The notes beneath the pieces are model-generated. The model searched no databases. It was not told where the DNA came from and saw nothing but the letters and a program-made list of their open reading frames with translations. This document shows, piece by piece, positions 2,365-36,818 of a stretch of 37,319 bases of DNA. Numbering within the stretch: position 1 is the first letter of the stretch; each line of letters begins with the position of its first letter. A program made the translations under genes and the position numbers. Origin of the DNA: Archaeoglobaceae archaeon (GTDB lineage: Archaea > Halobacteriota > Archaeoglobi > Archaeoglobales > Archaeoglobaceae); assembly GCA_021163065.1 (NCBI GenBank), contig JAGGXN010000075.1, positions 1 through 37,319 on the forward strand. The letters are read 5' to 3'.

Positions 2365-3249
2365 TTATTTTTTCTCAACATCCAATCCATATTTTCTTGC
2401 ATTTTCATCAGCTATCCTTTGCAATTCTTCAATTATCTGCTTACCCATTGGATGCTTGAACAGATGCCTGAATCTCCTCTGAATTTTTAAATACTCTTCA
2501 ACAGGCTTTCTATCTTTAATCTTTCTAACTCTTGTAAGTTTTCCATATTCGAATTCAACTAAAGGATATAATCCTGTCTCAACTGCAAGTTTTGCAGCTA
2601 TTATTCCACCTTTTCCGTCAACGCCCCATCCAGTAACGCATGGGGAATGAATTTGAATATATTTTGTACCTTCAAACTCCAAAGCTCTTTTAACTTTCCT
2701 CCTTATGTCTGCCGGAAAGGCCGAAGATGATGTCGCCACATACGGTATGCCATGGGCAACTGCTATTGACACCATGTCCTTTTTCTTTCCCAACTTTCCA
2801 GGCATTAGCTTGCCTACAGGTGTAGTTGTTGTTGCCTCGCCCATCGGCGTTAAACCGCTTTGCTGATGTCCTGTGTTTTGATAAGCCTCGTTATCTAAGC
2901 AGATGTAAATTATGTCGTGATTTCTATCCATAACTCCGGATAAGCAGCCAAAACCTATGTCTGCTGTAGCTCCATCTCCAGCAAAGACCACTACATGTCC
3001 TTCATCTTTTCTTCCCAACGCCCTCAAAGCGGCCTCAATTCCAGCAGCTACCGGAGCAGCATTTTCAAACAGCGAATGTATGTATGGTACTCCCCAAGCA
3101 CTTTTTCCGTATTGAGAGCTTATGATTTCCAAACATCCGGTTGAGTTAACGACAAAACATTTACCATCCAAAGCTTGTAAAACGTTTTTTACAGCTATCG
3201 GCAATCCACATCCAGGACAGGCTCCATGTCCGCTACTAAAGTATTTCAT
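2365..3249 (-). CDS. porB: Pyruvate/2-ketoisovalerate:ferredoxin oxidoreductase, beta (TPP-binding) subunit
   Basis: GHGACPGCG at the N-terminus and GDGATADIGF...LDNEAYQNTG (TPP motif). The start overlaps the alpha subunit stop by 4 nt. Confidence 0.85.
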   Translation of the reverse strand: MKYFSSGHGACPGCGLPIAVKNVLQALDGKCFVVNSTGCLEIISSQYGKSAWGVPYIHSLFENAAPVAAGIEAALRALGRKDEGHVVVFAGDGATADIGFGCLSGVMDRNHDIIYICLDNEAYQNTGHQQSGLTPMGEATTTTPVGKLMPGKLGKKKDMVSIAVAHGIPYVATSSSAFPADIRRKVKRALEFEGTKYIQIHSPCVTGWGVDGKGGIIAAKLAVETGLYPLVEFEYGKLTRVRKIKDRKPVEEYLKIQRRFRHLFKHPMGKQIIEELQRIADENARKYGLDVEKK

Positions 3250-4421: not shown

Positions 4422-4422
4422 T

Positions 4423-4713
4423 TTATTCCACCTCTAATTTGTAAATTTCCTTCACTTCCATTCTTATCGCATTTTCAGGGCAAACGAATGCGCAAACCCC
4501 ACAACCTTTGCAGTAGTCATAGTTAAAAACTGCATATTTCTTCTTATTCTCTTTTACAACTTCAACGCACAAATCTGGACAGAACATCTCGCAACTTCTG
4601 CATCCAGAACATTTTTCAACATCTACAATTGGATATTCTGTTCCCCAATCACCAGTCTTGTTTTTCTTTGCCTCCATTGGGCGTGAGATGGCTCCAATGG
4701 TTATTTCAATCAT
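4423..4713 (-). CDS. porD: Pyruvate/2-ketoisovalerate:ferredoxin oxidoreductase, delta subunit (2x[4Fe-4S])
   Basis: 96 aa with CSGCRSCEMFCP and CKGCGVCAFVCP motifs. Its start overlaps the gamma subunit stop by 4 nt. Confidence 0.85.
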   Translation of the reverse strand: MIEITIGAISRPMEAKKNKTGDWGTEYPIVDVEKCSGCRSCEMFCPDLCVEVVKENKKKYAVFNYDYCKGCGVCAFVCPENAIRMEVKEIYKLEVE

Positions 4714-5207
4714 ATCTTCACCTCCAACATGTATTTGCAGGCATCTTCAACAAGTTTAGCATTTTTATCAGCTATCTCTCCCTTAAACCATTCATATATT
4801 GTCTCCTTCAAAGTTTCAAGTTTTATCAGCTTTGTAGCTCCAGCAAAAGCACCAACCATTGCTGTATTCGTTATCGGCCTTCCTAAGATTTCCATTGCCA
4901 TTTTCGTTGCATTTATCGTCACAACTTTTCGATCCGTGCTTATCAATTTCTTGAATTCTTCTGCAGACTTCGGATAATTTGCAATCAGCAACCCATTCTC
5001 TTTCAACCCTTTATCCACTTCTACAGACTCAACCACTGTTGGATCTAGGACTACAACGTAGTCGGGATAGTAAATTTCATCTCTCAAAACAATTGGTTTA
5101 TCAGAGAGCCTTAAGAAGGATGCTACAGGCGTACCTCTCTTCTCAGCTCCAAATGTTGGAAATGAAAGTGTATAATAGCCTTCCTTAAATCCTGCAACTG
5201 CTAACAT
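4710..5207 (-). CDS. porG: Pyruvate/2-ketoisovalerate:ferredoxin oxidoreductase, gamma subunit; 5' end disrupted (see finding)
   Basis: MLAVAGFKEGYYTLSFPTFGAEKRGTPVASFLRL... matches PorG from about residue 25 onward. An in-frame TAG (complement of 5223-5225) sits just upstream of this ORF. Confidence 0.8.
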   Translation of the reverse strand: MLAVAGFKEGYYTLSFPTFGAEKRGTPVASFLRLSDKPIVLRDEIYYPDYVVVLDPTVVESVEVDKGLKENGLLIANYPKSAEEFKKLISTDRKVVTINATKMAMEILGRPITNTAMVGAFAGATKLIKLETLKETIYEWFKGEIADKNAKLVEDACKYMLEVKI

Positions 5208-7536: not shown

Positions 7537-8118
7537 ATGAAAGAAATTTCGTCTCCCTTAAATAAGGATGATGTGCTAAAATTAAAGGCTGGAGATATCG
7601 TATATGTTACTGGAGAGATTCTTACTGCAAGAGATAAAGCGCACATACGAATTTTAGAATTCCTCCAAGAAGGAAAAGAATTGCCATTTGAGCTTAATTG
7701 TAGAATTATCTATCACTGCGGTCCTTTGATGAAGAAAGAAGGTGAATGGGTTGCGGTATCTGCTGGACCAACAACTTCTGCAAGGATGAATGCCTCAACA
7801 AAAAAGATACTTGAAAAGATCGATTGTATTGGCATAATTGGAAAAGGTGGGATGGATGAAGAAGTTGTTAGAGCTTTAAATGGCAAAGGAATTTACCTAG
7901 CATACACTGGAGGGGCTGGAGCTTTGGCAGCAAAAGCTATAAAGAGAGTAAGAGGGGTACATTGGGAAGACTTAGGCATGGCAGAAGCCGTATGGGTTTT
8001 GGAAGTCGAAAAGTTTGGACCATGCATAGTTGGAATCGATGCTCATGGAAATAGCCTTTATTCTGAAATTTCAAAAAGAGTTGAGGAAAATTTCAAAAAT
8101 ATTATATCAAAAATTTAA
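7537..8118 (+). CDS. Class I fumarate hydratase family, beta subunit
   Basis: [14 protein letters not shown]...YHCGP...GPTTSARM...IGKGGM motifs. The ATG at 7537 follows GGGGTGA. The alternative GTG at 7528 overlaps the alpha subunit stop. Confidence 0.85.
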
Positions 8119-8140
8119 TTTTTTTAAAATTTTAAAAAAA
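8119..8140. terminator. Perfectly palindromic T7-A4-T4-A7 tract; candidate bidirectional oligo-T terminator
   Basis: tttttttaaaattttaaaaaaa exactly fills the gap between two convergent stop codons (8116-8118 and 8141-8143). Each strand presents a T7 run then a T4 run after its gene. Confidence 0.55.
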
Positions 8141-9103
8141 TTAAAGAGATGCAAATGCTTTTTCAAATGGTGGAACAACTTGCTTTTTCCTGCTCATCAC
8201 TCCATCAAGCCAGACTGATTTTCCTTCAAGCTTTTTGCCAAATGCCTTTTCAACAACCTCTGGATCGTCAGTCACGCAAAGCAATTCTGTACCCTCTTTC
8301 ATTATGTCTGTAAGCATTAGGAAAATGCTGTGATAACCGCCCTCTTCTTTAACCTTCTTCATCTCTTCATACAACGCGTCCTTGATTTCATCCAAAAGCG
8401 ACAAGTCAACGACTTCTATTTGTCCGATTCCAACTTTCTTGCCCGACATGTCAAAGTCTTTGTAGTCTCTAAACAGCAAATCTCTTGGACTTTTGCCAGC
8501 AACATCTGATTTTGCTTTGAACATTTCCATCGCAAAAGCCATCATGTCATCTATTCCAGCAATTTTTGCAAGTTCCTCTGCAACTTTTTTACATTTTTCA
8601 GTTGTTGTTACTGACTTAAACGCTACTGTATCGCTCAAGATACCCGCAAGCATTAAGCCTGCAATGTTTGGTGGTATCTCAACACCTGTTACATCAAATA
8701 GAATCTTCAAAACCGTCATTGTGCATCCTACTGGAAGATTTATGAATAGAATTGGATTTGGCGTTGTAATATCTCCAATCTTGTGATGATCAATTATTGC
8801 TACAATTTCAGCCTGATCGATGTTATCAACGGTTTGGCTTTTTTCACTATGATCAACAAGAATCAACTTCTTTCCAGCTCCGTCTGTAAGTAATTCCGGA
8901 AGTTCAAATCCAAGCTTGTTTAGAACAAATTCCGTTTCAGGATTCGGATCTCCTTGTCTTGCAGGTATTGCTTCCTCATCAACATTCATCACATCTTTCA
9001 TCTTTCCAGTTTCTCTCCACTTATTCCATAGATATGCAACAACAATTGCAGAACCAATGGAATCAGTGTCTGGATTTTTGTGTCCAACTACATAAATGCT
9101 CAT
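8141..9103 (-). CDS. ppaC: Manganese-dependent inorganic pyrophosphatase, family II (DHH/DHHA2)
   Basis: 320 aa with VVGHKNPDTDSIGSAI, VDHSE, IIDHHK and GILSDT motifs of the DHH family, plus a DHHA2-like C-terminus. Confidence 0.85.
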   Translation of the reverse strand: MSIYVVGHKNPDTDSIGSAIVVAYLWNKWRETGKMKDVMNVDEEAIPARQGDPNPETEFVLNKLGFELPELLTDGAGKKLILVDHSEKSQTVDNIDQAEIVAIIDHHKIGDITTPNPILFINLPVGCTMTVLKILFDVTGVEIPPNIAGLMLAGILSDTVAFKSVTTTEKCKKVAEELAKIAGIDDMMAFAMEMFKAKSDVAGKSPRDLLFRDYKDFDMSGKKVGIGQIEVVDLSLLDEIKDALYEEMKKVKEEGGYHSIFLMLTDIMKEGTELLCVTDDPEVVEKAFGKKLEGKSVWLDGVMSRKKQVVPPFEKAFASL

Positions 9104-9203
9104 GTTGTTAAATGGGAAGATTAATACATAACACTTTCGAAATTATCTGTGGTTAAATTACACATGATTAAAAAATTTCGTAAGCAATTTCTAATTATTT
9201 CAA

Positions 9204-10265
9204 TTACTCCAGTCCAATATACTCGGCAATTTTTTTAAGGTCGACAAAGCTTTCAACAAGCTCCTTAACCCTATTAACTTTTACATCCCCTCTAACCCTA
9301 GACTTTCCAAAAATCTCATCTAATTTCTCCGTAGTCGTTAAAGTATCGTCTCTAACGAGTATTACCGGAATGTTCCTTTCCTTAGCTTTTTCCAAAACTA
9401 CTTGTGGGGGTTTTAAATTTCCGGTTAGTATCAAACACTTTATGTTCATCGATTCCAATGCTACTAAATGCAAGTCAAGTCTGTCACCACCAGTTATTAA
9501 AGCAGCGTTGCGTGCATTTCTAAAGTATTTTATTGCCGATTGGGGGGACATGGCTCCAATGATTAGTTGCTCAATGATCATATCTTGTCCTTCAACTAAA
9601 AACTCCCCACTTAAAGATTTTCTTATCTCACTAACAAACAATCCAGCCAAGATTGAATCTTTCGGAATCATACCCACTAAGTCCATACCACTTTTTTGAA
9701 GCAAAGCACCTGCAACAGCCTCTATATATGTCCTTTTATATCCTGTTATTTGATTAAATAATGCTAAACCCAATTTCTCTTCAAATAGTTCCTTAGATGC
9801 AAGTAATCTATCTAATACAAAATCATTTGAATACTTAACAACCATCAAAACCTTGGTATCAAGAATTGTTGAAATTGTCAAATCACAAATTCCAATTGAC
9901 CTTCCAACTTTGTAATCTACTGCTCCTTCAACTAAAACTACATCCTTATCTTCAGAAATTTTGTTGTAGGAATCAATTATTTTCTTTCTCAACTCTTCAG
10001 GTTCTGCCAAATGTACAAATTCAACATACGGCTTGTCAAGTAGAATTGGGCATACATAATCGATCTCATCACTTATTCCCAAAACTTCAGCTGTGTTATA
10101 GGCATCTTCATCTATTAACTTTCCATCTAAATAACTTGTTTTTACACCAAAAGGCTTAAAATAACCAACTTTGTATCCCATTTCCCTTAATATAAGCCCC
10201 AAGGCGATTATAAATGCACTCTTTCCAGAGTATTCTTCTATTGATGATATTTGCAAACTTTTCAT
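9204..10265 (-). CDS. DRTGG-domain protein with a BioD/Pta-N-terminal-like P-loop domain
   Basis: The N-terminus has [13 protein letters not shown] (P-loop-like) and the C-terminus has [14 protein letters not shown]...LILTG (DRTGG). This is the architecture of the N-terminal regulatory part of phosphotransacetylase. Confidence 0.6.
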
Positions 10266-16306: not shown

Positions 16307-17083
16307 TTATATCTTAAAAAATTCAAACAATTTTGGATTAGAGAATAAAGAATCTTTTAAATCCACTATATTTCTTTCATTAAGGCTTTTTATCGTATTT
16401 ATACATCTTTCACATATTAAAGCTCCCATGTATTCCTTATAACCCCTTTTAATATTGTAAATATCGTAAATTTTCGTTGTTTTCAATGGATAACCGCAAC
16501 AAAAGCATAAACTTTTCATTGGGCTTTCCTCAATCAATCCTACTTTTTCAGGTATACTTAATGCTGCAATCAAAAAGGCCTCATTGGGACTTTTAAAATT
16601 TTCATAATATCTTACTCTGTCAAAGAATAGCTTTTTACAAGCCTTAGCTACATTTTTTAACAACGATTTGTCCATTTCTCCTTCTTGCAGTCCATAACAC
16701 CAATCGTAAGCTTGAGGCTCTATTGCAACAACTAACTCAATAGAGTGAAAATCAAAATATATGGGAACGAACGGTTGCGCTTTACATGAAGCCGGCTTAT
16801 ATTTATGAATTTCACATTTGTTATTATCCAAAAATATACATGCATTATTTCTCTTTTTTAGCTTATAAATGCCTGGAGCAATTTTGTATGCAAAATCTGA
16901 ATAACCCAAGCTCAACAAAGTTTTGTATTCTTCTTCATTCATATCTGCTGGAGTTTTACAGCATTCAAAGCATTCCCATTCTGGCAAGCAATTAAAAGCG
17001 ACTCCATCATGGTAAATCACTTTTACATTTTTGAAATTAAAATACCGTAAATTTTTGCTCATCAAAACTTCTCTTTTAATCAT
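16307..17083 (-). CDS. YkgJ/UPF0153-type cysteine-cluster (CxxCC) protein with a C-terminal zinc-ribbon-like extension
   Basis: ECFECCKTP and ACIFLDNNKCEIHKYKPASCKAQPF motifs, plus CFCCG...CERC near the C-terminus. The track ORF is trimmed to the ATG at 17083 (alternative 17062), because the longer form overlaps fdhD. Confidence 0.6.
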   Translation of the reverse strand: MIKREVLMSKNLRYFNFKNVKVIYHDGVAFNCLPEWECFECCKTPADMNEEEYKTLLSLGYSDFAYKIAPGIYKLKKRNNACIFLDNNKCEIHKYKPASCKAQPFVPIYFDFHSIELVVAIEPQAYDWCYGLQEGEMDKSLLKNVAKACKKLFFDRVRYYENFKSPNEAFLIAALSIPEKVGLIEESPMKSLCFCCGYPLKTTKIYDIYNIKRGYKEYMGALICERCINTIKSLNERNIVDLKDSLFSNPKLFEFFKI

Positions 17084-17122
17084 ACTTTCAAATTGGATTG
17101 TAAAATATTTTTGTTTTCCGAT

Positions 17123-17794
17123 ATGCTTAAAAAATTTGAGTATGGCGAATGCTTGATGGAAATTGAAAAGATTGGAAAAACCCTTGAAATAGCAAAGGAA
17201 AGGCAATACGTGCTGTCAATAAATGGAGATTCATACTGTGTAATGTGTACACCTACAGATTTGGAAAGCCTAGTCTTAGGATTTATCATTACCGAAGGCT
17301 TTGCAGATAGTATTGAGAAAGTTAAAAGGCTTAAGTTAAATTCCAATGAATTGATTGTTGAGGTTGACTGTGAAAGCTCAAATGCTTGTGATTTAAGAGT
17401 TCATTCAAGAATAAAATATTCAATAGAAGAATTGAGGCAATCATTGGGCTATTTGGACATTGAAGAATACAGAAAAACAAGAGGCTATCACGTTGCATGT
17501 ATTGTAAACAAAAATGGACTGATTAAGAGAGCATACGATGTTAGTAGACACAATGCCGTCAATAAGGTCATTGGGATGTGTTTAAAGGAAAAAATTGATT
17601 TTAGCGAAGTTTTTTTGCTAATTTCGGGCAGAATTTCAAGTAGTATGGCTTTGAAGTGTGTTAGAGCTAAAATTCCATTGATTGTTTCTAAAGCAGCAAT
17701 CTTTGATTCTGCAATTGAAGTTTGCAAAAAAACCGGCTTGTCAGCAGTTTCTTTTGCTACAAACATTGTCGTTAAGGGAGATGCGATAAACTAA
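17123..17794 (+). CDS. fdhD: FdhD-family sulfurtransferase (formate dehydrogenase / Mo-bisPGD enzyme accessory protein)
   Basis: VMCTPTDLESLVLGFIITEGF, GYHVACI, SRHNAVNKVIG and ISGRISSSMALKCVRAKIPLIVSK motifs. Start uncertain among 17093, 17123 and 17156. Confidence 0.8.
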   Translation: MLKKFEYGECLMEIEKIGKTLEIAKERQYVLSINGDSYCVMCTPTDLESLVLGFIITEGFADSIEKVKRLKLNSNELIVEVDCESSNACDLRVHSRIKYSIEELRQSLGYLDIEEYRKTRGYHVACIVNKNGLIKRAYDVSRHNAVNKVIGMCLKEKIDFSEVFLLISGRISSSMALKCVRAKIPLIVSKAAIFDSAIEVCKKTGLSAVSFATNIVVKGDAIN

Positions 17795-18978: not shown

Positions 18979-19965
18979 CTACCAAACACCATATATTTCT
19001 TTGCCGCATTTAAAGCATCTACCATTCTCAATTTTATTGTATATAACTCTCCATCCATCTCTTTTAATCAACAACTCTCCACAATTCGGGCAGTAAGTAT
19101 TCTCCAATTTGTTTCTAACATTTCCAATGTAAACATACTCAACTCCTTCCCTTTTCGCCAATTTGGCGGCTTTCTCCAAAATCTCAATTTTCGTTGGCGG
19201 TTTTTCAAAAATGAATGCTGGAAAGTATCTATTGAAATGTAACGGAATGTTTTTATTTGCATACTTTAAATGGTTGTCAATAACTTCTTTTATTATATCT
19301 ATGCTGTCATTTACATCTGTAACGATCAGATTTACAACTTCAACGTGCAAGTTTAGATCAATAGCTTTACTAACGACCCTCCATACAAATTTAGCCTTTC
19401 CACCACAATACTTTTCGTAAACCTCATCGTTTCCTTTAACATCGATGTTTATCGCATCCAATCCAGCTAAACTTAGCATTTCCAGTGCTTTCAAGCTCAT
19501 AAAACCGTTTGAGACCATAGTATTTAGCAATCCAAATTCTTTAGCAATTTTAAATGAATCTAAAAGGTATTCAAATAGTAGAGTTGGCTCGTTAAAGCTT
19601 GCACACAAGCTCAAATCCCTATTTTTCAAAGCTATTTCAACAAGTTCTTTTGGAAAAATTTTGTATCCTTCCTTAAACGTCTTTGATAGATGCCAATTCT
19701 GGCACCATGGGCAGTTAAGATTGCAAGAATAGCTAGAAAAAGTTAAACTATGTGATGATGGCTTAAAGTGGTAAAATGGCTTAATTTCTATTGGTCTGCT
19801 TTCAACAGCGCTAATGTTTGCGTAAGTTAAAGTGTAAAGTTTCCCATTCAAATTTATTCTTGCATTGCAAAATCCACGTTCATTTTCCTCAATCCTACAT
19901 TTGTGCCAGCAAAGCTTGCATACAACCTTGCCGTTCAGCTTTGAATAGAGTTTTGCTTCAAACAT
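18979..19965 (-). CDS. Radical SAM enzyme, AmmeMemoRadiSam / PflA-activase-like
   Basis: CNLNCPWCQNW (Cx3Cx2C), an N-terminal CKLCWHKC...C cluster and a C-terminal CPNCG...CFKCG ribbon. The ATG at 19965 shares its A with the upstream TAA (TAATG overlap). The track's 12-codon N-terminal extension is rejected. Confidence 0.7.
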   Translation of the reverse strand: MFEAKLYSKLNGKVVCKLCWHKCRIEENERGFCNARINLNGKLYTLTYANISAVESRPIEIKPFYHFKPSSHSLTFSSYSCNLNCPWCQNWHLSKTFKEGYKIFPKELVEIALKNRDLSLCASFNEPTLLFEYLLDSFKIAKEFGLLNTMVSNGFMSLKALEMLSLAGLDAINIDVKGNDEVYEKYCGGKAKFVWRVVSKAIDLNLHVEVVNLIVTDVNDSIDIIKEVIDNHLKYANKNIPLHFNRYFPAFIFEKPPTKIEILEKAAKLAKREGVEYVYIGNVRNKLENTYCPNCGELLIKRDGWRVIYNKIENGRCFKCGKEIYGVW

Positions 19966-20906
19966 TACATGATCACGCCTAATTTTATTAAGTCGTTGCA
20001 ATTCAAAATTCTTACACCTTTATTTTTCAGATTTTTCACAATCTCCTTAGCTTTCCTTATTTCTTTAATCATTCTTTCCCTTTCATTTGGTAAAATTCCT
20101 TCAACACCCTTAAAAATGATTCTATTAAACCAATCTGCCCCATCTAAGACCAAATAATTTGAAATGTGATCGCATGTAAAGTATGTTTTAACTTCTATGC
20201 TTTTGACAAGCCTTTCAAGTTCTTCAAGCTGCTGAATCGGAGTTAATGGTGTTAAAACTCCCTCTTCAACCATATCAACAATTTCATTGTTATAACCAAT
20301 CGTCAAAGTTCTTACCCTTACAAAGTCTGGAGCAACTTCATTAATAACTTTTGAAGTATTAATCACATGTTGCTTTGACCTTTCTATACCACCAAGTCCG
20401 ACTATAACGTAAAAAGACAGCTCAAAGAACTTCTTAGTCTTTAACCCAGCTTTTATCATGTCCTCGCTCGTAGCACCCTTTTTCATTAGCTTTAAGATTT
20501 CGTCATCTCCACTCTCGAGACCTATGTGCAATCTCGTTAATCCAGATTCTTTCAACCTTTTAAGTCTCTCTTCTTTCATCTTTGCTATTGTTTTTGCTCT
20601 TGCATAAGCAGTAACTCTTGAAACGTGTGGATAATTTTGCTTTAAAAATCTTATAATTTCGTCTAAATGTTTATGAACTAAGGGATCAGCATCACCTATG
20701 AATGCTGAAGTTGTGTAACCAAAGATTTCTCTCATTCGAAGAATATCTTTCTTTATTTCATTAACATTCCTAATTTCAAATTTTGTACCTCCATATCTCC
20801 AGCAAAATACACACTTCTTCCAAGCACATCCTCTTGTAACTCTCAATAGATAGCTTCCAGCCTCGCTTGGAGGTCTAATTTCCGGAAAGTCGTATTGCAT
20901 AAACAA
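19965..20906 (-). CDS. Radical SAM domain protein with a non-canonical Cx4Cx2C cluster motif
   Basis: IRPPSEAGSYLLRVTRGCAWKKCVFC, followed by GDADPL and HIGLESGDDEIL (Elp3/MiaB/NifB-type TIM barrel core). 313 aa. Confidence 0.7.
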   Translation of the reverse strand: MFMQYDFPEIRPPSEAGSYLLRVTRGCAWKKCVFCWRYGGTKFEIRNVNEIKKDILRMREIFGYTTSAFIGDADPLVHKHLDEIIRFLKQNYPHVSRVTAYARAKTIAKMKEERLKRLKESGLTRLHIGLESGDDEILKLMKKGATSEDMIKAGLKTKKFFELSFYVIVGLGGIERSKQHVINTSKVINEVAPDFVRVRTLTIGYNNEIVDMVEEGVLTPLTPIQQLEELERLVKSIEVKTYFTCDHISNYLVLDGADWFNRIIFKGVEGILPNERERMIKEIRKAKEIVKNLKNKGVRILNCNDLIKLGVIM

Positions 20907-20932: not shown

Positions 20933-20956
20933 TAGGATTGCATATATGCAATCCTA
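20933..20956 (-). promoter_or_regulatory. Perfect 24-nt palindrome TAGGATTGCATA|TATGCAATCCTA; candidate hairpin terminator, attenuator or operator
   Basis: Read directly from the sequence. It overlaps the TAG stop of the TPR membrane protein gene. On the coding strand it is followed by AAATGATTTTTAC, 47 nt before the radical SAM start. Confidence 0.4.
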
Positions 20957-21922
20957 TTTCTGATGTTCTTTGTATTTCTTCAATGCTTCTTCTGCCTCTT
21001 TTTTCAATCCAAGCTTTTCATAAGCTTCGCTAACGTGTTTCCACCATGCAGGATCATCCTTAGCTTGAGTTAGACAATATTCCAAATATCTCTTATAAGC
21101 TTCCTTAGCTCTCTCTTTTTCATTCAATTCTTCGTACATCTTTGCAACATCCTCCCAGAACACACCTTCTTCCTCTGCCTCCTTTAAATAATATTCTAAC
21201 GCCTTTTGCAAAGCTTCCTTAAACTTCCTTTCATCTATACCTTTCCATAAATTTGCAACATCCTCCCAGAACCAAGGCTCTTCTTCAGCATACTTTTCAA
21301 GGCATTCTGCAGCCTTCTTTATATCTCCAACTTTCTTCCAAAGCTCGTAAGCTTCTTTCCAGTAATAGTTATCTTTCTTTTGTTTTGCAAGCTCTTCGTA
21401 AATCTTTGCAGCTTCAACAAAATTTTTAGCTTTTTCATAGCACCACGCAGCAGATTCAAGCATTTTAGCCTTAATATAACACTCTGCCGCCTTATTGTAA
21501 TTTTTCTGCTTCTCATATTTCCTTGCAGCAGCTCTATAATCTCTCGCTTTTTCTAAGCTCTCTGCGCTTCTTATCCTTTCAACTATACTCAAATCTGGCT
21601 CAGAAATCCACCAAAATCCAAAAGCAATAGACAAAACGAATATTATTAAAATATAGGCTACATGAGCTGGACTTTCCCAAACGTAGCACTGATAGGTAGC
21701 GTAACATGAAACAAGTAATGCTACCAAAGATAATAAAGAATATTTTGATTTAGCATACAGCAACAATGCAAAGAGTATACCAAAAATTAATGACAAGACT
21801 AAGAATCCCAAGCCTAAGATTAGCCTCACGAGAAAAAGTATTCCAAAGTAATGGGCTATTGCTGCAAAAATTGCTAATAAGATAGCTATTGATGCTATTA
21901 AATATGCGTACAATTTATCCAT
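20954..21922 (-). CDS. Membrane protein: N-terminal TM helices and a cytoplasmic TPR-like helical repeat domain
   Basis: About 115 hydrophobic N-terminal residues (roughly 4 TM segments). These are followed by repeated A/K/E/W/Y-rich helical hairpins (AAECYIKAKMLESAAWCYEKAK..., FWEDVAN..., FWEDVAK...). Confidence 0.6.
   Translation of the reverse strand: MDKLYAYLIASIAILLAIFAAIAHYFGILFLVRLILGLGFLVLSLIFGILFALLLYAKSKYSLLSLVALLVSCYATYQCYVWESPAHVAYILIIFVLSIAFGFWWISEPDLSIVERIRSAESLEKARDYRAAARKYEKQKNYNKAAECYIKAKMLESAAWCYEKAKNFVEAAKIYEELAKQKKDNYYWKEAYELWKKVGDIKKAAECLEKYAEEEPWFWEDVANLWKGIDERKFKEALQKALEYYLKEAEEEGVFWEDVAKMYEELNEKERAKEAYKRYLEYCLTQAKDDPAWWKHVSEAYEKLGLKKEAEEALKKYKEHQK
21141..21272 (-). 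repeat. Exact 21-nt direct repeat (tttgcaacatcctcccagaac at 21141-21161 and 21252-21272), period 111 nt
   Basis: Read directly from the sequence. It corresponds to a 37-residue protein repeat (FWEDVA...) in the TPR-like domain. Confidence 0.85.
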
Positions 21923-23180: not shown

Positions 23181-23416
23181 ATCTTAATTTTGAGTAGCGG
23201 GAACTGTTGAGGTGTAAAAATTGATTGCTTTTACGTAGTACTAACTCACAGGAACAAACAACAATCTTGAAAAAGCGGAAAAGTTATTAATAAGATAAAC
23301 TATAAAATATTTAGATTTAATCCAACAGCTTCTCTTTTTGTTTATTTGTAACCTCTCAAAATTCCTTGCCATCTATAAGAACGCTTAAAAATTAAAATAA
23401 CAATTGTCAGTTAAAC

Positions 23417-23424
23417 TTTAAATA
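23417..23424 (+). promoter_or_regulatory. Candidate TATA box (TTTAAATA) for the CorQ-like regulator gene
   Basis: Consensus-like archaeal TATA preceded by A-rich BRE-like sequence. Its centre is about 25-26 nt upstream of the ATG at 23445. Confidence 0.4.
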
Positions 23425-23482
23425 CTTTCTTACCTAATCAAAGCATGGCCTATCAATTTCTCAAATTGCAGGTCTTACGGGA

Positions 23483-24109
23483 TTGAACAGGATGACTGTT
23501 TCAAGACACTTGGAAATTCTAAAAGCGAAGGGATTTGTGGATTACAGGCCCATAGGTCCCGCAAAACTTTGGTATCTGTCTGAAAATTATTTAGAAGCAA
23601 AGTATATAATTCACAAAACTGAGAAACCTTACATACTGAGTATGCTAAAAAGTGAAAAATCTGAACCGATAAGAAAGAAACTGGGCGATTTTATTTCTTT
23701 ACACCTTTTCAGACTTGAAAGAATGGCGTTAATTCTAATGAGTGGTGCTGATAGTATAATGTTCAGAATTGGTCAGGAAATAGCCAGAGAAGTGTCCCCT
23801 GAGATTGTAGAAAGTGGTAGCAATGAGGACGTATTTGATGGATTGGCTAAGATTTTTGAGAAACTTAAAATTGGCATTCTTGAGCTTGAAGGATGTAAAG
23901 AGGATGAAATCAAAATAAGGATATACGAATGTGTGAGTTGCTCAGGCATGCCAAACATCGGCAAGACTGTATGTTATTTTGAAGGTGGATTGATGGCAGG
24001 AACTTATGAAATTATTACAAAAAGACCAGCATTTGCAATAGAAACGAAGTGCTGGGGGACTGGCTATGAATACTGTGAGTTTGATATTCAATTAGATAAA
24101 AAATTGTAG
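23483..24109 (+). CDS. HTH + V4R (4-vinyl reductase) domain regulator, CorQ-like; 5' end anomalous
   Basis: NRMTVSRHLEILKAKGFVDYRPIGPAKLWYL is a wHTH recognition helix and wing. The C-terminus CVSCSGMPNIGKTVCYFEGGLMAGTYE...KCWGTGYEYCEF is V4R-like. The frame stays open upstream to 23438 (SKHGLSISQIAGLTG) with no ATG, GTG or TTG. Confidence 0.7.
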   Translation: MNRMTVSRHLEILKAKGFVDYRPIGPAKLWYLSENYLEAKYIIHKTEKPYILSMLKSEKSEPIRKKLGDFISLHLFRLERMALILMSGADSIMFRIGQEIAREVSPEIVESGSNEDVFDGLAKIFEKLKIGILELEGCKEDEIKIRIYECVSCSGMPNIGKTVCYFEGGLMAGTYEIITKRPAFAIETKCWGTGYEYCEFDIQLDKKL

Positions 24110-24244
24110 ATTATTAATTAAATTAGAAAAATAATTTAGAAAATCTTATTAATTCACAAATTATTCTATTTTGTTCTTATGATAATCAAAAGTGAACAGC
24201 AAAACTTAAATTCATGAATGATAATGTTAAACTGGGTGCTTAAG

Positions 24245-24817
24245 ATGTACCAGTTTGTTCTATATCCAGACATTGATTCATGCCTTGGATGCAAAACGTG
24301 CGAGATTGCTTGTGCTATTGAACATTCAAAGGGAAAAGATCTGGTTTCCGCTGTTTTACAAAGAGTAAAACCACATATAGATGTCGTTTACGTAGGAATT
24401 CCAGTTCCAATGAATTGCAGGCATTGTGAAAATGCTCCATGCTTGGAAGTTTGTCCAACTGGAGCTATTGATAGGGCAAGCAAGGATGGCCCAGTAATTA
24501 TTGACACATCAAAATGTATAGGATGTAGAAGTTGTGTTGTAGTTTGTCCCTATGGAGCTATAAGATTTGAAAAAGTGGCTTACAAGTGTGATCAATGCAA
24601 CGAGAGACTTGCAAATGGGTTGACACCAGCTTGTGTTGAAGCTTGTCCAGTTAATGCTTTGAAGTTTGAGAGGGTTGAGGAGATAGCCAAAAGAGAGAAA
24701 GTTGAGGCAGCAAGAAGATTTGTTTATGCTAGAGAGGTGGAGAAAGAAGTTAAGGAGATCAAGGAGACAAAGAGAACAACAGCCGCTTTTAGAGATTTGA
24801 TTTGGATTGTGAGGTGA
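24245..24817 (+). CDS. cooF: CooF-type iron-sulfur electron-transfer protein (4x[4Fe-4S])
   Basis: CLGCKTCEIAC, CRHCENAPCLEVCP, CIGCRSCVVVCP and CDQC...CVEACP motifs. The ATG at 24245 is preceded by GGGTG. The stop is 4 nt before cooS. Confidence 0.85.
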   Translation: MYQFVLYPDIDSCLGCKTCEIACAIEHSKGKDLVSAVLQRVKPHIDVVYVGIPVPMNCRHCENAPCLEVCPTGAIDRASKDGPVIIDTSKCIGCRSCVVVCPYGAIRFEKVAYKCDQCNERLANGLTPACVEACPVNALKFERVEEIAKREKVEAARRFVYAREVEKEVKEIKETKRTTAAFRDLIWIVR

Positions 24818-24821
24818 TTTT

Positions 24822-26714
24822 ATGGAAAATAAAAGTTTTGATCCTGCAGCTTTGGAGATGCTCGAGATAGTAAAGAAGGAGGGTTATGAGACCGCTTGGG
24901 AAAGACTGGAAAAACAACAGCCCCAATGTGGTTTTGGATTGCTTGGTGTTTGTTGCAGGAATTGCATGATGGGGCCTTGTAGAATAAATCCATTCGGTGA
25001 TGACCCGCAAAGGGGTGTTTGTGGTGCGACTGCTGATGTGATCGTTGCGAGAAACGTTGACAGGATGATTGCTGGTGGAGCTTCAGCACACTCCGATCAC
25101 GGAAGAAGACCTGCAATACTTTTGAAGGAGGTTGCTGAAGGGAAAAATAGAGATTATCAGATAAAGGATGTCGATAAACTTAAGGCAGTGGCTCAAAAAC
25201 TTGGAATTGACGTGAATGCGGAGATTAATGAGATAGCATTGAAAGTTGCTGAGATTGCTTTAAACGATTTTGGTAAGCAGGATGAGGAGCCAATAAAGTT
25301 CTTGATGGCTTATGCCCCTAAAAAAAGAATTGAATTGTGGAAAAAGGTTGAAGAAGCGTTATCAACCAACGCAAAAATAAAGATACTGCCAAGGAATATA
25401 GATAGGGAAATTGTGGACATAATGCACAGAACACACATTGGTGTTGATAACGAGGCTTTGTCATTGTTGGCTCAAGGCATTAGAGCTGCCTTGGCAGATG
25501 GATGGGGAGGTTCATTGATTGCAACGGAATTTCAGGACATACTCTTCGGGACACCGATGGTTAAGGAAGTTGAGGCTAATCTTGGCGTCATTGACCCAGA
25601 CTATGTGAACATAATTGTGCATGGACACGAGCCAGTTTTGTCTGAGAAGATTGTTGAGGTAGCTGAGAGTGAGGAGATGCAAAATAAGGCAAGACAGGCT
25701 GGTGCCAAGGGAATAAACCTCATAGGTATGTGTTGCACGGGCAACGAAATTTTAATGAGGCAAGGAGTGCCGATAGCAGGAAACGTTCTTCATTCAGAAC
25801 TTTCTATCGTTACAGGAGCAATAGATGCGATGGTTGTTGATGTGCAATGCATCTTCCCGGCTTTGCCAGAGTTGGCTGACTGCTTCCATACTGTCTTTAT
25901 CTCAACCAGTGAACAGGCTAAGTTTGAGAAGGGCATACACATTCAGTTTGAAGAAGATAAAGCTATTGAGACCGCAAAGAAGATAATCGAGAAAGCTATC
26001 GAAGCTTACAGCAGGAGAGACAAATCTAAGATTTACGTTCCTAAGCAAAAGAGCAAGGCTATTGTTGGTTTCAGTGTTGAACAGATACTAAAGGCTTTGG
26101 GTGGAAGTGTTAAGCCGATTGTGGATGTGATAGTTGAAGGTAAAATTAAGGGGGTTGCTGGAATCGTTGGTTGCAACAATCCAAAAGTTAAGCAAGATTA
26201 CTTCCACGTAACTTTAACCAAGGAGTTGATTTCAAGGGATATTCTCGTTATAGGCACAGGATGCTGGGCAATAGCTGCTGCAAAAGCTGGATTGATGACA
26301 ATGGATGCCGTAAAAATGGCAGGAGATGGATTAAAGAGTGTGTGTCAGGCTTTAAACATCCCTCCCGTCTTACACATGGGTTCGTGTGTTGATTGCTCGA
26401 GGATGCTCGTTTTGGCTGGGGCTATTGCAGATTACCTAAATGCAGACATCTCTGATCTGCCATTGGTTGGGTCTGCTCCGGAATGGTATACGGAGAAGGC
26501 GGTTTCTATAGGAACGTACTTCATAGCTTCAGGCATTCCAGTACATTTATGGCCTTTGCCACCTGTATTGGGGAGTGAGAAAGTCACTAAGATTTTAACT
26601 GAAGACGTGAAAGAGTTGCTTGGTGGCTATTTCTTTATAGAGGGTGATCCAATAAAAACGGTTGAAAAAATGGAAGAAATAATAATGGAAAAGAGGAAAA
26701 AACTTGGAATATAA
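24822..26714 (+). CDS. cooS: Anaerobic Ni,Fe carbon monoxide dehydrogenase catalytic subunit
   Basis: 630 aa with CGFGLLGVCCRNCMMGPC (D and B clusters) and HGHEP, GMCCTGNE, GCNNP, GTGCW and GSCVDCSR (C-cluster ligands). Confidence 0.95.
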   Translation: MENKSFDPAALEMLEIVKKEGYETAWERLEKQQPQCGFGLLGVCCRNCMMGPCRINPFGDDPQRGVCGATADVIVARNVDRMIAGGASAHSDHGRRPAILLKEVAEGKNRDYQIKDVDKLKAVAQKLGIDVNAEINEIALKVAEIALNDFGKQDEEPIKFLMAYAPKKRIELWKKVEEALSTNAKIKILPRNIDREIVDIMHRTHIGVDNEALSLLAQGIRAALADGWGGSLIATEFQDILFGTPMVKEVEANLGVIDPDYVNIIVHGHEPVLSEKIVEVAESEEMQNKARQAGAKGINLIGMCCTGNEILMRQGVPIAGNVLHSELSIVTGAIDAMVVDVQCIFPALPELADCFHTVFISTSEQAKFEKGIHIQFEEDKAIETAKKIIEKAIEAYSRRDKSKIYVPKQKSKAIVGFSVEQILKALGGSVKPIVDVIVEGKIKGVAGIVGCNNPKVKQDYFHVTLTKELISRDILVIGTGCWAIAAAKAGLMTMDAVKMAGDGLKSVCQALNIPPVLHMGSCVDCSRMLVLAGAIADYLNADISDLPLVGSAPEWYTEKAVSIGTYFIASGIPVHLWPLPPVLGSEKVTKILTEDVKELLGGYFFIEGDPIKTVEKMEEIIMEKRKKLGI

Positions 26715-26760
26715 ATTTATTTTTCATTTTTTGTATCAGATTGAATTAAAAGGTGATTGA

Positions 26761-27213
26761 ATGAAATTCCTAATAAACTCATTGCTTGAAATTCAAAGTA
26801 AACATGGCTATCTGCCAAAAAATGAAATGGAAAGGATTTCCATGGAGTTCAATGTTCCGATAAGCAGGATTTATAGCATAGCAACCTTTTATAATGCCTT
26901 CTCATTAAAACCCGTTGGAAGGCATGTTATTCATGTGTGTAAAGGAACTGCCTGCGTTATGGGAGGTTCAGAAGTTTTTGAAGACACTTTGAAACAAATG
27001 GGGGTCTTAGATGATGAAGATTTCACATACCAGCCAATAAGGTGCTTTGGTGCTTGTAGTTTGGCCCCAGTTGTTGTTATTGACGGCAAAGTGTATGGAA
27101 AGATGACTGTGAGCCGTTTAAAGAAGATTGTGTCTAAGCTGTTTGAGGATGAGAGCAAAGATAGTGATAACGATAAGACATCAAAGGGGGATGAAGATGC
27201 TCGAGAAGCTTAA
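26761..27213 (+). CDS. NuoE/HoxE/HydC-like thioredoxin-fold [2Fe-2S] protein
   Basis: CKGTAC...35 residues...[11 protein letters not shown] (Cx4C...Cx3C), with an acidic C-terminal tail. AGGTGA lies upstream of the ATG. Confidence 0.85.
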
Positions 27214-28984
27214 AGAAAAAGGGATTGATGAGTTATATGGTGATAGAATTGCTGTTGGAACCTCAACCTGCGGTATAGCTGCTGGAGCTTTGGAAGTTTT
27301 GGAGGTTTTAGCTTTAGACGATACGAAAAACGTTGTTGAGGTTGGATGTCTTGGTTTTTGTTCTGCAGAACCTTTAGTTTACGTGCAAGAAAACGGAAAA
27401 GCGGCTTTGGTTTACAGAAATGTGAAAAAAATTGAGGAAGCTAAAGTTCTAGGATGGTTCTATCCTTGGGAGTTCTCTCCACTAAAACTTGAACACCCTG
27501 AATTAGAAGGTTATAAAGAATATCCAAGGTTAGTAGAGCATCCATTTTACAAAAAGCAAGTGAAGATCGTTCTGAGAAATTGCGGAATTATCGAGCCATT
27601 GAACATTAGCCAATATGTTGCAATGGGCGGCTATTATGCTTTGCAAAGAGTTCTTGAGAAAGAGCCTGAAGATGTTATCGAAGAGGTGAAAAAATCGGGG
27701 TTACGGGGCAGAGGTGGGGCGGGATTTCCCACAGGTTTGAAATGGGAGATAGCAAAAAAGAATGAGGGTAAGAAATACGTAATATGCAATGCTGATGAAG
27801 GTGATCCTGGAGCTTACATGGACAGAAGTGTGCTAGAAGGCGACCCATTCAGCGTTATTGAAGGTATGACAATCGGAGCATATGCAATAGGTGCTGAGTT
27901 GGGATTTGTTTATGTAAGAAACGAGTATCCTTTGGCTGTTGAGAGGATTGAAAAGGCAATTGAAATTGCAAAAAAATATGGCTTTCTCGGCAAGAACATC
28001 ATGAATACAGATTTCTCATTCGACATACACGTTGTTAGAGGAGCTGGAGCATTTGTTTGCGGTGAGGAAACAGCTTTAATAGCATCCATAGAAGGTTACA
28101 TCGGCGAACCAAGAATTAGACCGCCGTATCCTGCTGAAAAAGGGTTGTGGGGGAAACCAACGGTAATAAACAACGTTGAAACTTGGGCAAACATATCGCC
28201 AATTATACTAAATGGCTGGAAGTTTTTTGCATCGTTAGGCACAGAAAAGAGTAAGGGGACGAAAGTATTCTCATTGGTTGGCAAAGTCAAAAACTCAGGA
28301 CTTATAGAAGTCCCTATGGGAATAAGCCTTAGAGAGGTTGTTGAAGAGATAGGCATGGCTGAAAACGTAAAAGCCGTACAAACTGGTGGTCCCACGGGAG
28401 GTTGTGTGCCCAAAAATCTGATGGACGTTGCTGTTGATTACGAAGAATTGACAAAACTTGGCTCAATCATGGGTTCAGGTGGAATGGTTGTGTTAGACAA
28501 TACCACGTGCATGGTAGATGTTGCGAAGTACTTCCTCGAATTTTCAAAGATTGAGTCTTGTGGAAAATGTGTGCCTTGTAGATTGGGCTTAGCAGAGATG
28601 GTAGATATAATAGAGAGAATAACAAAAGGTGAGGGGAGCTTGAATGACCTTGAAGAGCTTGAAAGACTTGCAGATGTTGTGGCAAATACATCACTTTGCG
28701 GACTAGGAAAGACCGCACCAAATCCATTGTTGACTACATTGAGGTATTTCAGAGAAGAATATGAAGAACACATAAGGGGGAGATGTCCAGCAGGAGTTTG
28801 CAGGGCTCTTGTGAAATACAGGATTGTTGAAGACAAATGCACAGGTTGTGGATTGTGTAAGCTGAATTGCCCGGCAGAAGCGATTGAAGAAGTCGATGAA
28901 GTTTACAAAATAGATGATAAAAAATGCATCAAATGCGGTTCGTGCTTTAACGTTTGCAAGTTTGAAGCAGTTGAAAGATTGTAA
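27197..28984 (+). CDS. NuoF/HoxF/HydB-like FMN- and NAD(P)H-binding subunit, with an N-terminal Trx-like domain and a C-terminal 2x[4Fe-4S] ferredoxin domain
   Basis: [36 protein letters not shown]...[12 protein letters not shown], then [12 protein letters not shown] and [11 protein letters not shown]. The start ATG is 27191 or 27197, after GGGGG, and overlaps the end of the NuoE-like gene. The track start at 27128 is rejected. Confidence 0.9.
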
Positions 28985-28999
28985 TTGTAGGTGGTGGTA

Positions 29000-29707
29000 A
29001 TGGCAATAAAAATTGAAGTTGATGGAAAAAACTACGAAGTTGAAGAGGGCAAACTACTTGACGCTCTAATTGACTTGGGTTTCGACATTCCACACCTCTG
29101 CTATCACAAGGCCATTGGAAGTTATGGTGCCTGCAGACTTTGTTTAGTGGAAATTAAAGAGAATGGGGATGATTGGAAAATAGTAACATCATGCTCCACA
29201 GAAGTAAAAGAAGGAATGAAGGTGAGGACAAAATCGCAAAGAATCCGGGAGTTGAGAAGAGGAATTGTTGAATTGCTTGCAAACCACACGTCATCAGATA
29301 TTGTAAAAGAACTTGCATCATTATATAAAATAGAGGTTAAAGGAGATAAAAAATGTGTGCTTTGTGGTTTATGCGTCAATGTCTGCAGTCTTATCGGCAT
29401 TTCAGCAATCTCATTTGAAAACAGAGGTATTGAAAGGAGAGTAAACGCCCCATTTGGAATTCCAACAGAATTCTGCGTTGGTTGTTTAGCATGTACAAAT
29501 CTCTGTCCAACTGGGGCAATTAGGTTTGAGAATGGTAAGTTGATAGTTGGAGACAGGATTTTAGCGGAACACAAGCTTTTAAGATGTGAGAGATGTGGAA
29601 AGGAAGTTTTAACTAAAAAACATCATGAAAAACTTGGTATTAAGGAGATCCTTTGTGAAAACTGCAAGAAGCTTGTACAGGCCAAGAAATACTTTGGTAG
29701 CAGATGA
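29000..29707 (+). CDS. HoxU / NuoG-N-terminal-like iron-sulfur protein ([2Fe-2S] plus 2x[4Fe-4S] plus a C-terminal CxxC...CxxC)
   Basis: CYHKAIGSYGACRLCLV...SC, CVLCGLCVNVC and CVGCLACTNLCPTGAI motifs. The ATG at 29000 follows GGTGGTGG. An alternative GTG lies at 28991. Confidence 0.8.
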   Translation: MAIKIEVDGKNYEVEEGKLLDALIDLGFDIPHLCYHKAIGSYGACRLCLVEIKENGDDWKIVTSCSTEVKEGMKVRTKSQRIRELRRGIVELLANHTSSDIVKELASLYKIEVKGDKKCVLCGLCVNVCSLIGISAISFENRGIERRVNAPFGIPTEFCVGCLACTNLCPTGAIRFENGKLIVGDRILAEHKLLRCERCGKEVLTKKHHEKLGIKEILCENCKKLVQAKKYFGSR

Positions 29708-36743: not shown

Positions 36744-36818
36744 GGGCCCGTGGCTCAGCCTGGTTAGAGCGTGCGCCTGATAAGCGCAAGGTCCGGGGTT
36801 CAAACCCCCGCGGGCCCA
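36744..36818 (+). tRNA. tRNA-Ile (anticodon GAU)
   Basis: Folded by hand: acceptor GGGCCCG/CGGGCCC, D stem GCTC/GAGC, anticodon stem TGCGC/GCGCA, loop CTGATAA, T stem CGGGG/CCCCG, loop TTCAAAC, discriminator A. No encoded CCA and no intron. Followed by GTTTTT. Confidence 0.93.

Follow-up and report, generated by a model that had tools for sequence, protein, structure and literature searches.

A cooF-cooS-bfuCBA cassette in Archaeoglobaceae, predicted to encode an electron-bifurcating carbon monoxide dehydrogenase

Five adjacent genes were analyzed on a 37,319-nt stretch of DNA from an Archaeoglobaceae archaeon (GenBank assembly GCA_021163065.1, contig JAGGXN010000075.1), referred to as the window. 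The genes lie on the + strand at 24245–29707 in the order cooF-cooS-bfuC-bfuB-bfuA. They encode a polyferredoxin, a Ni,Fe carbon monoxide dehydrogenase (CODH) catalytic subunit, and three proteins that by homology are the BfuC, BfuB, and short BfuA subunits of a Bfu-type bifurcating flavin module. The cassette recurs in other Archaeoglobi, and cooS, cooF, and bfuCBA are linked in distant bacteria and archaea. The products probably form one soluble complex that would oxidize CO and reduce both NAD+ and ferredoxin.

Genes and cofactor sites of the cassette

Open reading frames (ORFs) were listed and translated, and gene calls were based on Pfam and NCBIfam scans. Coordinates are given in Table 1. 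A preliminary description, made from the sequence without database searches, had reported five co-directional genes; all five were found where it placed them, and its gaps and overlap were reproduced. The gaps are 4 nt between cooF and cooS, 46 nt between cooS and bfuC, and 15 nt between bfuB and bfuA. bfuC and bfuB overlap by 17 nt if bfuB starts at ATG 27197, or by 23 nt if it starts at ATG 27191. A GGTG- or GGGGG-type ribosome-binding site precedes each start codon. Three loci from other Archaeoglobi assemblies, L001, L002, and L003, were used for comparison; L003 is from the Archaeoglobaceae metagenome-assembled genome (MAG) GCA_030153635. The cooF start at 24245 matches that of L001. The best matches of the cassette proteins are in Archaeoglobus and Archaeoglobaceae MAGs.

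Table 1. Features of the cassette and of the DNA just upstream of it (window coordinates)
Feature	Position	Strand	Description
HTH+V4R (MsvR-like) regulator, 5′ end degraded	23483..24109	+	PF02830 V4R, 4e-17
Upstream motif TTATGATAATCAAAAGTGAACAGCAAAACTTAAATT, ~35 nt	24177..24212	+	Near-invariant in cooF-upstream alignment (window, L001, L002)
cooF	24245..24817	+	Polyferredoxin, four [4Fe-4S] motifs, long C-terminal helical tail
cooS	24822..26714	+	Ni,Fe CO dehydrogenase catalytic subunit
cooS-bfuC spacer	26715..26760	+	Holds T5 and T6 runs and AAGGTGAT ribosome-binding site
bfuC	26761..27213	+	NuoE/HydC-like, [2Fe-2S] C1 cluster
bfuB	27191..28984	+	FMN/NAD(H)-binding NuoF-like subunit; start ATG 27191 or 27197
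bfuA (short, WorA-type, 235 aa)	29000..29707	+	NuoG-N-terminal-like FeS protein

CooS is complete, as first described. It scores 794 bits against TIGR01702 (cut-off 478), and its best PDB match is the Thermococcus AM4 CODH (6t7j, 1.7e-246). The ligand motifs of the D-, B-, and C-clusters were all found, together with the equivalents of His93 and Lys563 (QCGFG, GVCCRNC, GPCR, GVCGA, ASAHSDH, VHGHEP, MCCTG, VDVQC, VGCNNP, TGCWA, MGSCVDC, and TEKAVS). The closest CooS relatives beyond Archaeoglobi share 68–70% identity and are encoded alone, with cooC, or with cooC-cooF-FNOR.

CooF matches Fer4_11 (PF13247, 4e-22). Its 16 cysteines (13/16/19/23, 58/61/66/70, 91/94/97/101, and 115/118/130/134) make up the four [4Fe-4S] motifs. 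The best solved match is WorS (9mqx_E, 3e-27), the polyferredoxin of the bifurcating tungsten aldehyde oxidoreductase WorABC(SL)3; the alignment covers residues 7–160 and includes the WorS C-terminal helix. CooF sequence was also tried as a marker of Bfu linkage and was rejected, as identities to Bfu-linked (39–48%) and FNOR-linked (38%) homologs were too close.

BfuB has the flavin mononucleotide (FMN) and NAD(H)-binding core of NuoF (PF01512, 2.6e-47; PF10589, 1.5e-32) and a C-terminal 2x[4Fe-4S] domain. The HydB-type architecture first described, with an N-terminal thioredoxin-like and a C-terminal 2x[4Fe-4S] domain, was recovered. Residues are numbered from the start at 27191. The top PDB matches are NiFe-HydB (7T2R, 4e-211, 706 bits) and NfnB (9N5U, 702 bits), followed by HydB (7Q4V and 8A6T), StnB (8OH5), and WorB (9MQX, 4e-187). 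Solved bifurcating B subunits match at 4e-211 to 1e-175 over nearly the full length, versus 6e-121 and the core only for plain NuoF/Nqo1.

Residues 19–110 of BfuB align with the thioredoxin-like N-domains of NfnB, StnB, and 9bov_B, and C27, C53, and C57 of the B5 site fall on their conserved cysteines. The FMN loop is at 173–182, and the B1 cluster ligands are C457, C460, C463, and C503. The B2 site (C440, H527, C532, and C537) aligns with C437, H524, C529, and C534 of Thermococcus sibiricus (Tsi) NfnB. Its histidine is conserved in virtually all Bfu B subunits (Xiao et al.). Thr478 occupies the position of the fifth B2 ligand of the NiFe enzyme (C476), so the site is predicted to be of the zinc type. 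Fer4-family matches cover residues 544–595, and ferredoxin motifs for B3/B4 begin at residue 550 (first motif 550–561). This C-terminal domain aligns with those of all solved BfuB subunits.

BfuC (PF01257, 2e-36) has [2Fe-2S] ligands at C60, C65, C95, and C99. BfuC subunits account for all of its best PDB matches (HydC, NiFe-HydC, NfnC, and WorC; 1e-30 to 2e-27).

BfuA has a Fer2_4 domain and a 2x[4Fe-4S] domain, and aligns end to end with WorA (9mqx_A, 2.5e-33, residues 4–231). The A1 [2Fe-2S] ligands are C34, C45, C48, and C65; the [4Fe-4S] motifs of A2 and A4 are C119/122/125/129 and C159/162/165/169. Four further cysteines (C196, C199, C219, and C222) form a zinc finger, followed by a helix at 220–234 in an AlphaFold2 model. 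All 16 cysteines are invariant across 21 homologs. The model has a predicted local distance difference test score (pLDDT) of 93.8. The top Foldseek match is 9mqx_A (TM-score 0.86/0.82), with the runner-up at 0.65 and HoxU at 0.63. In WorABC(SL)3 the zinc finger and helix are the "plug" that docks the polyferredoxin WorS on the bifurcating core (Feng et al. 2025, PMC12318220). The window BfuA lacks a catalytic domain and would therefore need an external electron-input module. The His-ligated A3 cluster is absent, as in WorA.

In Pfam searches that covered every ORF of the window from 120 aa upward, no hydrogenase, formate dehydrogenase (FDH) catalytic subunit, acetyl-CoA synthase (ACS), Ech/Mrp, or CooC was found, in agreement with the preliminary description.

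Three other assignments were rejected. The third flavin-module subunit had initially been called HoxU-like, and that part of the description did not hold: the protein has no His-ligated [4Fe-4S] site and carries the C-terminal CxxC...CxxC zinc finger and helix of the WorA type. The H-x3-C-x2-C-x5-C motif is absent, the sequence there being LLANHTSSDIVKEL; the WorA match is much better than that to HoxU, and NCBIfam HoxE/HoxU scores are far below the cut-offs, so a HoxEFU module was dismissed. A plain NuoEFG fragment was rejected because of the domain layout of BfuB and its much weaker PDB match to plain NuoF. A CooF-FNOR system was discarded as no Pyr_redox_2 gene lies beside the cassette; the sole nearby FAD protein is a geranylgeranyl reductase on the opposite strand.

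Recurrence of the cassette and exchange of CooS

The five-gene cassette recurs in L001, L002, and L003, where the flanks on both sides are unrelated to one another. CooS and BfuB matches share contig sizes in four further cases (75970, 22245, 15136, and 9275). Lack of conserved linkage had been set beforehand as a result that would refute the association. It was not borne out, as cooS is linked to the flavin genes not just in other Archaeoglobi but also in several lineages of bacteria and archaea.

The CooS of L003 differs from that of the window more than its neighbors do. L003 identities to the window are 63% for CooF, 63% for BfuC, 77% for BfuB, and 61% for BfuA, about as close as those of L002. 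CooS identity is 54% in L003 and 83–84% in L002. The window CooS is nearer to the bacterial non-Bfu CooS proteins (69–71%) than to that of L003. The L003 CooS (7755–9608) is 13 aa shorter. Both CooS types have 6t7j as best PDB match, and the L003 protein is closer to the D. vulgaris CODH. As the other four proteins remain at 61–77% identity, CooS appears to have been exchanged in place and a CooS retained. Chance adjacency is not an easy explanation for a cassette that kept a CooS through such an exchange.

Wider carriers were sought by a genome scan with an alignment of short BfuA. The matches listed (at least 600) provide examples and are not a census; the Archaeoglobi loci and the published Firmicutes Codh-Bfu loci are not among them. 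Linkage of cooS, cooF, and bfuCBA is kept in L001–L003, L011, L044, L058, and L065. L065 (5262–11652) is from the complete genome of a cultured methanogen, Methanospirillum stamsii Pt1 (NZ_CP176366.1), and has cooF-cooS-bfuC-bfuB-bfuA followed by a cooC-like P-loop gene. Among the matches listed, Desulfurellales have the same gene order as the window, a Clostridia MAG has cooC-cooS-cooF-bfuCBA, and Anaerolineales have a cooS, cooF, and bfuCBA cluster. In an Acidobacteriota MAG (L009, 6805–20738), acsB-like, cdhD-like, and RACo genes come immediately after cooF-bfuC-bfuB-bfuA. A cooS/acsA-like gene lies ~9 kb downstream in L009, and the Bfu module sits within a Wood-Ljungdahl CODH/ACS cluster. 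L014 and L021 have worS-AFOR-bfuC-bfuB-bfuA, with an aldehyde oxidoreductase at the CooS position.

A neighbor-joining tree of BfuB was built from Kimura-corrected distances (554 columns, 200 bootstraps) and is a rough distance tree. The Archaeoglobi form a clade (100%). Its sister group (78%) includes the CooS-linked BfuB proteins of Methanospirillum and Desulfurellales. A separate observation concerns a Thermodesulfobacteriota MAG (L016, 6852–13040), where a 1045-aa BfuB has a C-terminal GltD-like fusion (Fer4_20 and Pyr_redox_2). Next in that locus come genes for a short BfuA, a CooF-like protein, and an FNOR-like Pyr_redox_2 protein. The locus encodes no CooS, and its BfuB clusters with CooS-linked BfuB proteins at 99% bootstrap.

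Proposed complex and alternative readings

The five genes are best read as encoding one soluble complex, an archaeal Codh-Bfu (CodhABCSF), that couples CO oxidation to NAD+ and ferredoxin reduction by bifurcation; we give this reading a probability of roughly 0.6. The reading draws on sequence, predicted structure, and synteny. The preliminary description had centered on a soluble complex in which CooS/CooF is coupled to a HydB-type flavin module and NAD(P)+ is reduced, alone or together with ferredoxin, and every part of it that sequence can address agrees with the data. The association of CooS/CooF with BfuABC, the stoichiometry per BfuABC, the use of NAD or NADP, and bifurcation itself are predictions.

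The electron path is modeled by homology to 9MQX and other Bfu structures. CO would be oxidized at the Ni,Fe C-cluster of CooS, and its B and D clusters would relay the electrons to CooF, with its four [4Fe-4S] clusters. CooF would serve both as a wire and as the adaptor joining CooS to BfuA. It would be held on the short BfuA by the BfuA C-terminal zinc finger and helix, as WorS is on WorA. Electrons would then pass through A4, A2, and A1 of BfuA to B1 and FMN in BfuB. The FMN/B1/C1 site is predicted to split the electrons from two CO, with two leaving as hydride to NAD+ and two, at low potential, going to ferredoxin (Fd) via C1 and B3/B4. The predicted reaction is 2 CO + 2 H2O + NAD+ + Fd(ox) -> 2 CO2 + NADH + Fd(red) + protons. 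Bifurcation is proposed because the window proteins keep all of the features by which bifurcating BfuBC differ from NuoEF-type modules that do not bifurcate. The question posed by Codh-Bfu is why an enzyme would bifurcate with a donor as strong as CO, and very low CO partial pressure is the proposed answer. Coupling to NAD+ would let ferredoxin reduction continue at low CO, where the CO2/CO couple lies far above its standard −520 mV (Schut et al. 2022, PMC9304861).

Several points weigh against this assignment. The 46-nt spacer, with its T5 and T6 runs and an A/T-rich stretch, could terminate transcription or be an internal promoter. The nearest bacterial relatives of the window CooS occur in non-Bfu contexts, so this CooS lineage can do without a Bfu partner. 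CooS-linked BfuB proteins are not monophyletic in the tree: those of L011, L058, and L009 fall elsewhere, and the Bfu-CooS association therefore probably arose more than once. The Archaeoglobi examples are all from MAGs or metagenome contigs. The B5 site of BfuB could hold either [2Fe-2S] or Zn. Bifurcation is not thermodynamically required, since CO can reduce ferredoxin and NAD+ directly at standard potentials (PMC9304861), and by the account of Feng et al. (2025, PMC12318220) CodhABCSF still awaits purification.

The strongest alternative, although unlikely, is a single complex that does not bifurcate. It would be a CO:NAD(P)+ oxidoreductase with the Bfu module as diaphorase, a functional analog of CooF-FNOR. 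Electrons would pass from CooS through CooF, BfuA, B1, and FMN to NAD(P)+, and B3/B4 would be an optional side exit to ferredoxin. CO (E0′ −520 mV) reduces both acceptors without energetic coupling (PMC9304861), and the closest bacterial CooS relatives pair with CooF-FNOR, which is NAD(P)-linked and non-Bfu (L008). That pairing suggests a common need for NAD(P)H made from CO. However, the B5 domain, B2 His site, and B3/B4 domain are all kept in BfuB, unlike in NuoEF, HoxEF, and FdsBG. WorABCSL, with the same short BfuA and a very low-potential donor, is also described as reducing NAD+ and ferredoxin only together (Schut et al. 2021, as given in PMC9304861).

Two independent neighboring enzymes are less probable still. 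CooFS would then be a ferredoxin-reducing CODH, and BfuCBA a separate NADH:ferredoxin-type oxidoreductase or a module that serves a hydrogenase, FDH, or another catalytic unit whose genes lie elsewhere. Schut et al. (PMC9304861) raised the same question for Codh-Bfu. The existence of this CooS lineage without Bfu in bacteria would fit, but the window BfuA lacks a catalytic domain, and its C-terminus is the WorA-type finger and helix that in 9MQX docks a CooF homolog. The cassette also moves as a unit among unrelated flanks, a CooS was retained after the CooS exchange, and the linkage recurs in distant phyla.

The T-run spacer between cooS and bfuC bears most directly on two enzymes. The preliminary description had cautioned that its runs might act as a terminator. 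The runs are present (T5 at 26720–26724 and T6 at 26727–26732), but the terminator idea was weakened by the relatives. The spacer is 27 nt in L001, where the T6 run is kept, 10 nt in L003, and 0 nt in L002 (TGAATG), so a terminator is not conserved, and spacers of 0–10 nt leave no room for one. Runs of at least five T number 160 on the + strand of the 37.3-kb window, three of them inside cassette coding sequence. A promoter and terminator scan, which models bacterial signals while the host is archaeal, gave six terminator-like sites versus 4.7 +/- 2.2 in shuffled sequence, none in the cooS-bfuC spacer. A possible partner for a separate BfuCBA is hinted at by an FdhD/NarQ-family gene (PF02634, 9e-43) at 17093–17794, 6.5 kb upstream, but unrelated genes on both strands part it from the cassette.

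An ACS-type CODH makes its own CO internally, which speaks against a complex working mainly in reverse (confurcation), with NADH and reduced ferredoxin driving CO2 to CO, for example for the acetyl-CoA decarbonylase/synthase of the host. Such a role is very improbable: Bfu enzymes are reversible (PMC9304861), cooF-bfuCBA of L009 lies in a CODH/ACS cluster, and NuoEFG-like COGs are listed in Wood-Ljungdahl-context CODH neighborhoods (Inoue et al. 2019), but NADH and reduced ferredoxin together average about −390 to −410 mV, well above the −520 mV of CO2/CO, so that net CO would form only at extremely low CO, and no ACS genes occur in the window or in L001–L003.

A broader version of the Codh-Bfu reading is tentative and is held to be doubtful as a whole. 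The bifurcating CODH of hyperthermophilic archaea would have reached Archaeoglobi as a mobile five-gene cassette that stays functional after a CooS swap, with CooF and the WorA-type plug acting as a generic socket for catalytic modules, CooS2-CooF forming a wire network, and the V4R protein acting as a CO or redox regulator. A branched or filamentous CooS2-CooF network feeding BfuABC cores is possible because CooS is a homodimer and CooF-type proteins can chain via their C-terminal helices. If it exists, it would harvest trace CO for NADH and reduced ferredoxin.

Setting of the locus and comparison with known systems

A regulator gene lies upstream of cooF in the window, in L001 (6127–6866), and in L002 (3074–3799). 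Its product combines a helix-turn-helix (HTH) and a V4R domain, and its NCBIfam MsvR score is 81 bits, below the cut-off of 220. Only the L002 copy is intact (241 aa); that of L001 is split in two by a frameshift. In the window copy (23360–24109), ATG has become ATC, and there are an 11-nt insertion and two in-frame stops. The remaining ORF begins at TTG 23483, and ~35 N-terminal HTH residues are lost. The gene may be a decaying CO- or redox-responsive regulator, or errors in MAG assembly may explain the defects. As a candidate regulator, it would act on the cassette without belonging to the enzyme. The motif between it and cooF (Table 1) has counterparts at about 7005–7040 in L001 and about 3870–3900 in L002, and is a candidate promoter or operator of the cassette. 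L003 has neither the motif nor the V4R regulator. In the broader, doubtful reading given above, the HTH-V4R protein, accompanied by the motif, would be an archaeal regulator responding to CO or redox state that had not been described before.

Other genes of the window include mer, geranylgeranyl reductase, MCM, pyruvate:ferredoxin oxidoreductase, and Fae-Hps. With the best matches of the cassette proteins, they assign the window to Archaeoglobi. The Fae-Hps-type gene (69–1364) encodes a fusion of formaldehyde-activating enzyme with an OMPdecase/HUMPS domain. The pyruvate:ferredoxin oxidoreductase set (beta, alpha, and gamma subunits) is on the − strand at 2365–5207. Both fit Archaeoglobi or methanogen-like C1 metabolism. 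The start of the FdhD-like ORF overlaps the end of an opposite-strand ORF at 16307–17206. Two adjoining radical-SAM genes on the − strand (18979–20906, listed overlap 37 nt) are followed by a 322-aa ORF at 20954–21922 that has no Pfam match. The sole RNA gene found in the window with ARAGORN and Rfam is a tRNA-Ile (GAT) at 36744–36818. G+C content is 0.40–0.415 across the cassette (24001–29000) versus 0.32–0.39 in most of the window and 0.37 overall, and ~0.44 in related Archaeoglobi loci. The higher value could reflect horizontal origin or the Cys/Gly-rich composition of the proteins.

The distribution of Codh-Bfu now extends beyond Firmicutes to Archaeoglobi, Methanospirillum stamsii Pt1, Desulfurellales, Anaerolineales, and Acidobacteriota. 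M. stamsii Pt1 is an experimentally tractable host. The compact thermophilic archaeal version is a practical candidate for a first purification and cryo-EM, since it resembles the T. sibiricus NfnABC, which was successfully expressed in Pyrococcus furiosus. The loci also suggest modularity, in which a polyferredoxin and WorA-type plug serve an aldehyde oxidoreductase in some loci and a CODH in others, and the CODH itself is open to exchange in place. For Archaeoglobi physiology, the complex would provide a further way, separate from the CODH/ACS complex, to obtain NADH and reduced ferredoxin from CO.

Among known systems, the HoxEFU diaphorase of bidirectional NiFe hydrogenases has a like trio of NuoE-, NuoF-, and NuoG-N-terminal-like proteins, with sub-threshold NCBIfam HoxE/HoxU matches in the window. 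It differs in that HoxF is without the C-terminal 2x[4Fe-4S] domain and HoxU has a His-ligated cluster and no zinc finger and helix; no hydrogenase genes accompany the trio in the window. The CooS-CooF-FNOR systems of Deferribacter autotrophicus (L008), Geobacter sulfurreducens, and Clostridium ljungdahlii likewise link CO oxidation to pyridine nucleotide through CooF, but their acceptor is a single FAD/NAD(P) Pyr_redox_2 protein, not BfuABC.

NiFe-HydABCSL of Acetomicrobium mobile (7T2R) and NfnABC of T. sibiricus (9N5U) provide the best and second-best solved matches of BfuB, and Tsi NfnABC shows that Bfu enzymes function in hyperthermophilic archaea. Both differ from the window in their long BfuA (about 690 and 963 aa) with A3, A5, or extra domains, and in their third substrates, H2 and NADPH. 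At the B2 site, the window Thr478 is as in Nfn and FeFe enzymes, not the fifth Cys of the NiFe enzyme. WorABC(SL)3 of A. mobile (9MQX) is alike in BfuA, where length, the 16 cysteines, the missing A3, and the zinc finger and helix agree, and in the CooF-WorS (3e-27), BfuB-WorB (4e-187), and BfuC-WorC (2e-27) matches. The Wor-Bfu loci L014 and L021 share the order of polyferredoxin, catalytic subunit, C, B, and A. In contrast, the window catalytic subunit is a Ni,Fe CODH, normally a homodimer, and not the monomeric tungstopterin protein WorL, and CooF extends 38 residues beyond WorS at the C-terminus. Neither the 1:3 stoichiometry nor the nanowire arrangement of WorABC(SL)3 can be taken for granted in the window complex.

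The closest system is the published Codh-Bfu. "Codh-Bfu (A-F)" was listed among uncharacterized Type 2 Bfu enzymes with four sequences, in BfuB clade 49 and restricted to Firmicutes (Schut et al. 2022, Front Microbiol 13:946711, PMC9304861), and a hypothetical "CodhABCSF" was named in Sporomusa silvacetica (Feng et al. 2025, PNAS 122:e2501900122, PMC12318220). The full-text literature to autumn 2026 yielded no characterization of Codh-Bfu. Searches for CooS with NuoE/NuoF, Ni-CODH bifurcation, and Methanospirillum CooS/NuoF likewise returned no characterization, and gave general remarks on NuoEFG-like genes near some Ni-CODH genes. The statement in the preliminary description that such a complex has not been characterized biochemically thus stands in the literature searched, but the idea itself had already been published (PMC9304861, PMC12318220).

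In Codh-Bfu, as in the window, CooS, CooF, BfuA, BfuB, and BfuC are encoded in one cluster, the short BfuA has the zinc finger and C-terminal helix, CooF is a WorS homolog, and the proposed reaction involves CO, NAD+, and ferredoxin. As to clade, the comparison covered solved structures and the loci described here: the best solved match of the window BfuB is NiFe-HydB, a clade-49 protein (Schut et al. 2022, PMC9304861), the window BfuB groups with other CooS-linked BfuB proteins (78%), and the host is archaeal. The published sequences are the four from Firmicutes, among them those of Acetohalobium arabaticum and Clostridium cellulovorans, and that of Sporomusa silvacetica. The CODH genes are placed between bfuB and bfuA in at least two cases, and the published subunit count (A-F) has three extra subunits. 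The window, set against these Firmicutes examples by their description, has an archaeal host, the order cooF-cooS-bfuC-bfuB-bfuA, two extra subunits, and no cooC. The archaeal and additional bacterial carriers, the gene order parallel to Wor-Bfu, and the in-situ CooS exchange appear to go beyond the published papers. The enzyme type has already been predicted from bacterial genomes, and the window locus is a new archaeal example of it, not a new kind of system.

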